The notes under the pieces are model-generated. The model was not told where the DNA came from, did not search any database, and worked only from the letters and a program-made list of their open reading frames with translations. The position numbers and the translations under genes are program-made. 6,219 nucleotides of DNA, from the IMG/VR virus record IMGVR_UViG_2778261347_000002, positions 1 through 6,219 of that record. One strand, written 5' to 3'. Below are positions 5,476 through 6,219 of the stretch, one piece after another. This DNA is from a virus. Lineage: Duplodnaviria; Heunggongvirae; Uroviricota; Caudoviricetes. Position 1 is the stretch's first letter. Each line of letters starts with the position of its first letter.

Positions 5476-5490
5476 TCGCTTGATTTTAAA

Positions 5491-5551
5491 GGCTGACTTA
5501 ACGATATCCCCCTGATAGTCATTTATCAGTTATCTAATTATTAAGTCAGCC
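5491..5551 (+). repeat. nested palindrome just 3' of the integrase stop
   Basis: Perfect 11-bp arms GGCTGACTTAA (5491-5501) and TTAAGTCAGCC (5541-5551), enclosing an inner 6-bp inverted repeat CTGATA-gtcatt-TATCAG (5512-5529). No T-tract follows. Confidence 0.5.
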
Positions 5552-5968
5552 ATAATCCCCTAAGTATCATTCCTTAATCAGATTCAGCACCTTGTAATAC
5601 GACCGGTTAATTTAGAAAGAGACGATAGATAAACGCTTATGATGAAATACTAAGAAATTACTTCAGGCTCTATTAACTGGAGCTGTAATAGACAATAATT
5701 TAAATAACGCAATAGTTATATTTATATCTTAATATAAATTTCCACTGTATTTAACGTCCAGGGAGCCATCTTGAAAGGATAAAAATTCACATTATCACCA
5801 TAAAATCACAACGACACCAAAACACATTTCACAACAACACCCTTGCAATAAACCTGTTTTTAACAAAAAATCAAAGACTGAAAAGAGTTTTGATTCAGAA
5901 AACCACATGAGACATGCTTAATATTTTTCAGTTTATCTAAAGGACGCGTTCATCTTTATTACAAAAAT

Positions 5969-5987
5969 ATAAGTACACTGTACTTAT
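5969..5987 (+). repeat. 19-bp perfect palindrome ATAAGTACA-C-TGTACTTAT; candidate operator
   Basis: Nine complementary pairs around a central C at 5978, checked base by base. Confidence 0.45.
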
Positions 5988-6061
5988 TAAACATCCAAAA
6001 ATCACACCAGTTAATATTTCTTGTATTACTGTAATTTCTGGAAAAATTTCTTCAAAAAAAA

Positions 6062-6089
6062 TATAGCATACATATCTTTATATGCTATA
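6062..6089 (+). repeat. 9-bp inverted repeat TATAGCATA ... TATGCTATA with 10-nt spacer (hairpin or operator)
   Basis: Arms 6062-6070 and 6081-6089 are perfectly complementary. Confidence 0.45.
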
Positions 6090-6143
6090 AAAGATAAGGC
6101 AGATTTATAACATACTTGCCTCAATAGAACTATCTAAGGGTTT

Positions 6144-6171
6144 GCCTCCACATATAGTGGAGGCTTTTTTT
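6144..6171 (+). terminator. strong intrinsic terminator
   Basis: 8-bp stem GCCTCCAC/GTGGAGGC (5 GC pairs), 5-nt loop ATATA, followed by a T7 tract (6165-6171). The reverse complement lacks a T-tract, so it is plus-strand specific. Confidence 0.65.
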
Positions 6172-6219
6172 ACCCAATAACAATATTATTCTGACACCTG
6201 TATCATATACACATCTGAC

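Follow-up and report, generated by a model that had tools for sequence, protein, structure and literature searches.

Genomic islands that are linked to tRNA genes through a P4-type integrase share a recognizable layout, in which a tyrosine integrase with an arm-binding domain directly follows the tRNA gene in the same orientation, the cargo behind this conserved gene varies, the island itself is polymorphic for presence and absence, and the GC content is low compared to the core genome. The KplE1 (CPS-53)/P22-like prophages likewise occupy a tRNA gene, argW, where their excisionase gene torI is followed by the attachment core. Noncoding, AT-rich stretches in such elements invite comparison with several well-described systems. 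The Hfq-dependent island small RNAs consist of stem-loops and a GC-rich terminator hairpin with a 7-U tail, in an AT-rich intergenic setting. Fimbrial operons are controlled from upstream regions of two kinds. The Pap-type switch relies on two GATC sites roughly 100 bp apart, embedded in Lrp sites between the divergent papI and papB genes, and the fim-type switch on a segment flanked by inverted repeats that is encountered in both orientations and is served by a FimB/FimE-type recombinase.

The locus described here is a typical tRNA-linked P4-type-integrase island with a KplE1/P22-like prophage stacked on the same tRNA gene. Our subject is the segment that follows the integrase gene, positions 5476-6219 of the window, by which we mean the whole 6,219-nt stretch of DNA that was analysed. 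The segment lies outside the prophage and is built of discrete modules. We consider it probable that it represents a noncoding relic, composed of an integrase trailer and the distal upstream DNA of an acquired fimbrial operon whose papB-family gene has been cut by an insertion sequence (IS). The features on which this account draws are as follows.

4095-4110, + strand: attR core of the KplE1/P22-like prophage, CTGCAGGGGACACCAT, the single exact match in the window to the published 16-nt core
4285-5475, + strand: argW-island integrase gene, P4-type with an arm-type DNA-binding domain, a pseudogene here, found directly behind argW in prophage-free strains
5476-5595, + strand: putative integrase trailer, a 120-nt module with a nested hairpin, 89% identical to argW islands bearing other cargo
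5596-6143, no strand assigned: orphan AT-rich, ORF-free DNA of 29% GC with many short perfect inverted repeats, delimited by composition and repeat counts
5806-5818 and 5829-5841: CA-rich direct repeats
5969-5987: palindrome ATAAGTACAcTGTACTTAT
6053-6060: A-tract whose length varies between strains
6062-6121, + strand: two hairpins just before the terminator, with a 9-bp stem (6062-6070 / 6081-6089) and a 6-bp stem (6097-6102 / 6116-6121)
6144-6171, + strand: Rho-independent terminator GCCTCCAC-ATATA-GTGGAGGC followed by T7, found by a terminator scan
6198-6219, no strand assigned: remnant of a Nextera/Tn5 mosaic-end adapter, CTGTATCATATACACATCTGAC, agreeing with CTGTCTCTTATACACATCTGAC at 20 of 22 positions

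The right-hand boundary of the prophage can be placed with precision. The core published for KplE1, CTGCAGGGGACACCAT (PMC2951348), is identical to the 3′ end of the tRNA-Arg gene argW, and in an alignment with the prophage-free strain 14EC033 identity begins at CTGCAGGGGACACCA, which is that same argW 3′ end. When E. coli genomes were searched with positions 3821-4400, the matches that contain only the torI half stopped at window positions 4109-4121, mostly at 4109-4110; the one match among those listed that contains only the integrase half began at 4095, and the whole torI-attR-integrase junction was present in 67 genomes. To the left of 4110, the window resembles the KplE1/P22-like prophages at argW, with torI and then the identical core. 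These alignments put the end of the prophage at 4110 and assign the DNA to the right of the attR core to something other than phage; the integrase gene and the AT-rich DNA behind it belong to an older argW island, and the segment falls outside attL-attR. The first-pass annotation had entertained a junction with foreign or host DNA within the AT-rich stretch. The DNA is foreign, as proposed, but the phage/host junction is at 4095-4110, outside the AT-rich segment.

The same annotation was framed as if the gene at 4285-5475 were the integrase of the prophage, and this frame has to be given up, because attR lies upstream of 4285 and the prophage's own intS adjoins argW at attL, about 40 kb away in O26:H11 11368. 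The encoded protein is 396 aa, compared to approximately 385 aa for IntS (from an annotated intS gene of 1158 nt), and intact copies carry the Pfam domains Arm-DNA-bind_3, Phage_int_M, and Phage_integrase. The window holds the WP_001131472-type island allele with a nonsense mutation: a single C>A change at 4950 relative to the intact allele converts TAC (Tyr) to TAA, and PGAP labels the gene "internal stop" in O26:H11 11368. Between that genome and the window there is 1 mismatch in 6197 nt, and its gene order is argW, intS, an acyltransferase family gene, tailspike, and so on to torI, attR, the integrase pseudogene, the same spacer, a truncated papB-family gene (papB'), and IS3. Any serotype-conversion cargo of the gtr-type phages would sit by intS, at the other end of the prophage, where this genome has the acyltransferase gene. 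Such an arrangement probably arose when an old, now decayed island at argW, with the segment as its integrase-proximal, ORF-free edge, was displaced downstream by a P22/KplE1-like prophage that later integrated into argW, so that torI now seems to precede "its" integrase. Since attR precedes the integrase, the suggested comparison with the regions downstream of int in KplE1 and SfV-type phages is misplaced.

The island is found in strains that lack the prophage. In 14EC033 and XJ5.2, the order is yfdC, argW, integrase, 1265 bp of unannotated DNA, papB', and IS3, and in one locus (L002) argW occupies 8136-8210 and the integrase gene 8386-9576, which thus starts 175 nt past argW in the same orientation. 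The segment was detected in 242 of 5426 complete E. coli genomes (~4%), always on the chromosome, with 239 of the copies at least 99% identical and all copies found at least 98.8% identical; 238 genomes align colinearly as one piece, and no annotated feature underlies the segment among the matches listed. Carriers span O26, O103, O111, and ST131, over which the segment is at least 99% identical, and identity of this order across distant lineages counts against a relic. Beyond papB', IS elements and fragments of defence genes make up a mosaic. Of the hallmarks of tRNA-linked islands, the position and orientation of the arm-domain integrase, the presence/absence polymorphism, the variable cargo, and the low GC are encountered here. 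Unlike a typical island of this kind, the copy is heavily decayed, with an O26-lineage nonsense mutation in the integrase gene, IS-cut cargo, and fragmentary neighbour genes, and its integrase-proximal 1.27 kb is devoid of genes.

The segment begins with a module that it shares with other islands. Another 29 genomes share its first 120 nt only, at 80-90% identity, and homology to argW islands with other cargo ends at approximately 5595; in strain R1, the one such strain inspected, the cargo comprises a transposase fragment, a DUF262 gene, a DEAD/DEAH helicase, and a BREX ATP-binding protein. This distribution identifies 5476-5595, as far as sequence comparison can tell, as a trailer belonging to the integrase module. 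The trailer is organized around a nested hairpin, with a perfect 11-bp outer stem (5491-5501 / 5541-5551) and an inner stem CTGATAG/TTATCAG, and is predicted to fold at −26.8 kcal/mol as RNA (z = −4.2), with sliding-window z-scores of −4.8 on the + strand and −3.9 on the − strand. No T-run follows this hairpin, and the trailer possibly serves as a 3′-end stabiliser or as a protein-binding site. A reading of the 5491-5551 hairpin as an integron attC-like site was considered and rejected, given that its 3′ arm is ATTAAGT rather than GTTRRRY and that the integrase is P4-type by Pfam.

At the opposite extreme, the end of the window is of technical origin. All 241 of the 241 E. coli genomes matched by a 3′ query (5900-6219) depart from the window exactly at 6198, where they read TTTATTCCTGTAATC... 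in place of CTGTATCATATACACATCTGAC, and two metagenome contigs from different assemblies stop at the same base. The 22-nt tail was examined as an IS or phage end, yielded no match in the loci or viral contigs, and proved to be the Nextera adapter, the published sequence of which is CTGTCTCTTATACACATCTGAC (PMC3906532). By this comparison the last 22 bases are an artefact and not genome. The adapter end probably stems from a tagmentation hot spot with a gap in coverage behind it; the 200 bp beyond the contig end have a GC content of 15-22%. With an adapter at the end of the contig, nothing should be read into features at the edge of the window.

What remains between the trailer and the adapter is distinguished above all by its composition. 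The reported drop in GC right after the integrase stop is confirmed and proceeds in two steps, from 0.44 in the integrase gene to 0.36 in 5476-5595 and 0.29 in 5596-6197, so that the AT-rich part stands at 29% against 46% in the remainder of the window; this 29% GC stretch shows a skew of C over G, and in complete genomes low GC (0.15-0.34) continues for ~540 bp (543 bp) past the window, up to papB'. The literal observations of the earlier annotation all hold, but no more than two of them go beyond chance, and composition by itself accounts for the lack of ORFs and of GATC sites. It is true that no ORF reaches 60 aa, the longest on both strands being 37 aa (5795-5908, − strand) and the + strand of the segment containing none of at least 30 aa, but the missing long ORF is uninformative because 78% of dinucleotide shuffles of the segment likewise have no ORF of at least 60 aa. 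Just as had been stated, 5476-6197 contains no GATC, the final such site of the window being at 5119-5122, yet with 1.7 expected in the segment the absence is not significant because 15% of shuffles have zero. The earlier conclusion that this is not a gtr-type switch nevertheless stands, the segment being outside the prophage.

The description of the segment as dense in perfect palindromes applies to one type of repeat and not to the other. Perfect hairpin-type inverted repeats (arms of at least 7, loops of at most 45) are enriched: the segment has 12 distinct instances where dinucleotide shuffles have 3.45 ± 1.67, not one of 300 shuffles reaches 12, and a control stretch of the integrase gene shows no such enrichment; strict palindromes without a spacer (arms of at least 4) are not enriched, with 1 observed and 4.7 expected. 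An excess of three to four times the composition expectation weighs against a relic, as neutral decay offers no obvious cause for it.

The strong terminator that had been noted near the end of the segment is well supported. Its 8-bp stem (6144-6164) with 6 G-C pairs, 5-nt loop, and T7 have the properties of the class, it is the sole terminator-like site in 5300-6219, where 0.3 are expected, and it is predicted to be unidirectional, the − strand having an A-run before the stem and AAACCC after it. Together with the two hairpins that precede it, the terminator is the only small-RNA-like feature of the segment. The stretch 6036-6175 folds at −33.8 kcal/mol (z = −3.7), and none of 200 shuffles is as stable. 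Along the segment, the fold z-scores are unremarkable over 5536-5955, reach about −2.1 to −2.6 at ~5956-6075, and fall to between −2.7 and −5.1 at 6076-6255. The − strand folds even better, and the z-scores are for this reason mostly a reflection of inverted repeats at the DNA level. A cluster that folds better than shuffles and resembles the 3′ end of a discrete transcript is a further observation at odds with a relic. No convincing sigma-70 promoter was found on the + strand within 300 nt upstream of the hairpin cluster; the best candidates agree at 9 of 12 positions and have poor −10 hexamers, and candidate sites are fewer than in shuffles.

Strain variation offers a view of the constraints on this DNA. 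Across six loci, the integrase gene has 2 SNPs in 1191 nt and the spacer, that is, the DNA between the integrase gene and papB', has 14 SNPs and 6 indel columns in 1269 columns, a contrast inflated by the choice of these loci for spacer divergence. With that qualification, the spacer appears to change faster than the integrase gene, which suggests weak constraint. Upstream of the island, the core DNA of yfdC-argW varies at 35 sites in 1250 nt among five of the six loci. The island, with so few variable sites in comparison, is either younger than its carrier lineages or mobile between them, and recent horizontal spread would account more simply for the identity of at least 99% across lineages. 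Within the window, strains differ by scattered SNPs, by slippage in the A-tract at 6053-6060, by a change in the T-run, and by a 5-nt duplication in the palindrome at 5969-5987. At the terminator, two of seven comparison strains depart from the window, their sole change being an added T next to the T-run.

Searches for homologues and hidden genes were uniformly unproductive. A six-frame Pfam scan of the 1265-bp spacer returned 0 families, a six-frame concatenation of 5560-6197 returned 0 matches at E ≤ 0.01 against 5.8 billion proteins, no tRNA or tmRNA gene was found in the window, and Rfam, at a permissive E-value, returned only a terminator-driven match to Arrc14 at 31 bits, against a gathering score of 99. 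The plasmid and phage collections contained only IS3 ends and one 43-nt chance match. In 80 loci near integrase relatives of other species (identity at most 73%), the spacer was absent, with the sole exception of an E. coli contig within a metagenome-assembled genome labelled Aliicoccus, and a metagenome scan by terminator pattern recovered the same island 8 times, along with 4 unrelated terminators; neither source provided a diverged homologue for covariation analysis. The 37-aa ORF was evaluated as a small protein or toxin and rejected: no Shine-Dalgarno motif could be read upstream of it, and against 1.84 billion representatives it matched itself and, weakly, two unrelated long proteins of 839 and 1258 aa, one of these weak matches comprising 14 matched stretches.

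Extending the sequence 3′ beyond the window, as had been proposed, reveals that the next gene is the remnant of a PapB/FocB-family (PF03333) regulator, papB', 1265 bp past the integrase stop. It is annotated as a 51-codon "PapB/FocB family" ORF, of which ~40 codons are genuine; an IS or a frameshift follows these ~40 codons in every copy inspected, and in all 6 of the 6 loci with an annotated remnant an IS is responsible, IS3 in five and ISEc23 in the ST131 strain. A search of 5.8 billion proteins returned 12 relatives, all of them truncated copies from E. coli that end in differing junk tails and do not exceed 67 aa, and no intact relative from which the ancestral operon could be recovered; the best intact relatives, at no more than 56% identity, regulate plasmid-borne K88/F4-like and Pap operons. 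The upstream regions of such operons share with the spacer their position before a PapB/FocB-family gene and a high AT content, GC being 33% in the papI-papB region and 32% in the 1.1-kb unannotated region upstream of another PapB-family gene (one inspected). The differences are considerable: here there is no DNA similarity to the inspected operons, the operon itself is gone, and a terminator separates the window portion from the papB'-proximal DNA. A remnant of the PapI/FaeA type was sought in the spacer by tblastn with PapI, PapB, and the neighbours of PapB-family genes, and nothing scored below E = 0.2. The spacer has only two GATC sites, 20 bp apart and 48-68 nt before papB', outside the window.

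Against this background, four other readings of the segment deserve to be weighed. That it is a part of the prophage, whether the int-distal end, an attachment junction, or the control region of a moron, is suggested by the adjacency of torI to the integrase gene, as in the xis-int-att modules of lambda-type phages, but it conflicts with the attR core upstream of the integrase gene, with intS at the opposite end of the prophage, and with the phage collection, which holds no homologue; on our alignments, it is effectively refuted by the prophage-free strains, in which the same integrase and AT-rich DNA lie behind argW, and we regard it as barely credible. Scarcely more credible is a live cis-regulatory or phase-variation region for downstream fimbrial genes, be it a Dam/Lrp switch of the Pap type or an invertible element of the fim type. 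The position upstream of a PapB/FocB-family gene, the AT-richness and wealth of inverted repeats, and the adjacent tyrosine recombinase gene would all suit such a region, but with papB' reduced to ~40 codons and an IS or frameshift in every copy there is nothing left to regulate. Moreover, a Pap-type switch is contradicted by the spacing and location of the GATC pair and by the missing papI remnant, and a fim-type switch by the 238 colinear genomes, which show no inversion polymorphism, and by the recombinase, a 396-aa tRNA-island integrase with an arm-binding domain rather than one of the FimB/FimE type. A live fimbrial switch is thereby effectively refuted. As for the suggestion that the segment is a regulatory region for cargo beyond the window, the part concerning position survives, in that the segment is upstream of papB', whereas the cargo to be regulated is dead.

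The two remaining alternatives make more of the terminator. One or more protein-coding genes on the + strand may have decayed beyond recognition, leaving only the terminator at 6144-6171; its distance of ~550 nt from the module boundary at 5596 would be plausible for one small gene, and the island is visibly decaying, but no frame matches Pfam or the protein collection, the + strand lacks even a 30-aa ORF, and 29% GC with a skew of C over G is nearer to the upstream regions of fimbrial operons than to E. coli coding DNA, all of which makes a vanished gene improbable as the main explanation. Alternatively, the segment may encode an unannotated island small RNA, transcribed as a primary product or derived from the integrase 3′ UTR, with its 3′ end at 6062-6171 and the makings of an Hfq-type candidate. 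A canonical intrinsic terminator stands where no ORF ends, and no gene annotated here among the matches listed lays claim to it; the hairpin cluster folds well, and the few substitutions among eight aligned strains spare the terminator stem and the first hairpin. The stem-loops, GC-rich terminator hairpin, 7-U tail, and AT-rich setting are those of Hfq-dependent island small RNAs, but here promoter-like matches are weak, and there is no Rfam family above noise and no homologue beyond near-identical E. coli copies; in addition, the − strand folds better, the spacer accumulates changes faster than the integrase gene, and in one copy from a metagenome (L100) the 3′ arm of the second hairpin has lost 1 nt, reading TTGCTC in place of TTGCCTC. 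We judge a small RNA to be unlikely, and keep it in consideration because the excess of inverted repeats and the well-folding cluster are not explained by simple decay.

The reading of the segment as a relic remains the one that we favour. The stretch 5596-6197 forms the first half of the 1265-bp unannotated spacer of 15-35% GC that leads to papB'. On this account, the spacer would be the DNA left over from upstream of a K88/Pap-like fimbrial operon that was acquired laterally, possibly including an older gene decayed beyond recognition, with no dedicated present-day function. The terminator would end read-through from the integrase gene, or from spurious promoters in the AT-rich DNA, before the former fimbrial promoter region. 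H-NS probably coats the spacer and silences it, as it does other very AT-rich DNA that E. coli has acquired; the high AT content of such xenogeneic DNA, within an acquired island, is reproduced here. Matches to the high-affinity H-NS motif TCGATAAATT show no enrichment over the whole window, and only three matches with 2 mismatches occur in the segment.

Nothing in the segment departs from known kinds of sequence, and the region has been deposited many times, unannotated among the matches listed. Should the small-RNA reading be true, ~4% of E. coli, EHEC O26/O103/O111 and some ST131 among them, would carry a regulatory RNA whose structure, and not decay, would lie behind the excess of inverted repeats; it would be one more island-encoded small RNA of E. 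coli, a modest result. As ordinary decayed AT-rich acquired DNA, which is what the segment would be as a relic, its value is mainly corrective. An integrase gene downstream of the excisionase gene of a phage need not belong to that phage, and because elements stack in tandem at tRNA hot spots such as argW, the boundaries between them should be set by the att core and not by gene order.

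The island integrase gene, which lies to the right of the attR core of the KplE1/P22-like prophage within the older argW genomic island, is rendered a pseudogene by a single substitution, a C>A change in the codon at 4948-4950 that converts a tyrosine (TAC) into a stop (TAA). The remainder of the 1191-nt gene is identical to the intact allele of prophage-free strains, which served as the reference.

On the phage side, argW itself is represented in pieces. An exact 16-nt copy of argW positions 46-61, from the T-arm (TTGCAGGTTCGATTCC), is found at 3786-3801, just upstream of the excisionase gene torI, while the attR core at 4095-4109 corresponds to argW positions 61-75. 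Taken together, the phage end thus carries the tRNA gene's 3'-terminal 30 nt, interrupted by ~290 bp that include torI. This split argW 3' end may be a trace of the evolution of the torI module or of the att site.

Within the AT-rich segment (5476-6219), strain variation includes two length changes among the loci compared (L002, from a prophage-free strain, and L008-L011). The A-tract at 6053-6060, located 5' of the first hairpin, ranges from one A fewer to three A more than the eight of the window across eight aligned sequences, and strain Rb-50 harbors a 5-nt duplication (TACAC) within the 9+1+9 palindrome at 5969-5987. Such variation could reflect slippage or long-read homopolymer error. 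GATC is strongly under-represented over the whole window, with 9 sites against 25.2 +/- 4.8 in shuffled sequences (200 of 200 shuffles had 9 or more); the depletion therefore extends to the phage early region, and the AT-rich segment is not special in this respect.

The final 22 nt of the window (6198-6219) are a Nextera/Tn5 adapter remnant (20/22 matches). Two metagenome contigs from separate assemblies, L098 and L103, both terminate at the identical base, …TTCTGACA, and directly beyond this shared break point lies a 200-bp stretch of 15-22% GC, a pattern that points to a tagmentation hot spot with a coverage gap behind it, recurrently breaking assemblies at this position. A 3-kb contig (L012; DYYI01000083.1) in a metagenome-assembled genome labelled Aliicoccus persicus evidently stems from E. 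coli DNA contaminating the bin: its integrase protein is 100% identical, and its spacer DNA 99.8% identical, to the E. coli argW island.

Beyond the spacer, the PapB/FocB-family remnant papB' is a spot repeatedly struck by IS elements or frameshifts. In ST131 strain 5392, ISEc23 (IS66 family) follows the remnant in place of IS3 (L009 3768-3914 compared with L001 13266-13421), and the other copies (P0001-P0012) end in differing junk C-termini. In several strains, the cargo behind the integrase consists largely of defence-type genes or their fragments (L002 12311-20299; L004 6708-12119; L001 14734-20067), including HsdR N-terminal domain proteins, a DUF262 gene, a TerB N-terminal fragment, and a DEAD/DEAH helicase accompanied by an ATP-binding protein annotated as BREX. 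The argW island site acts as a defence hot spot with variable content.
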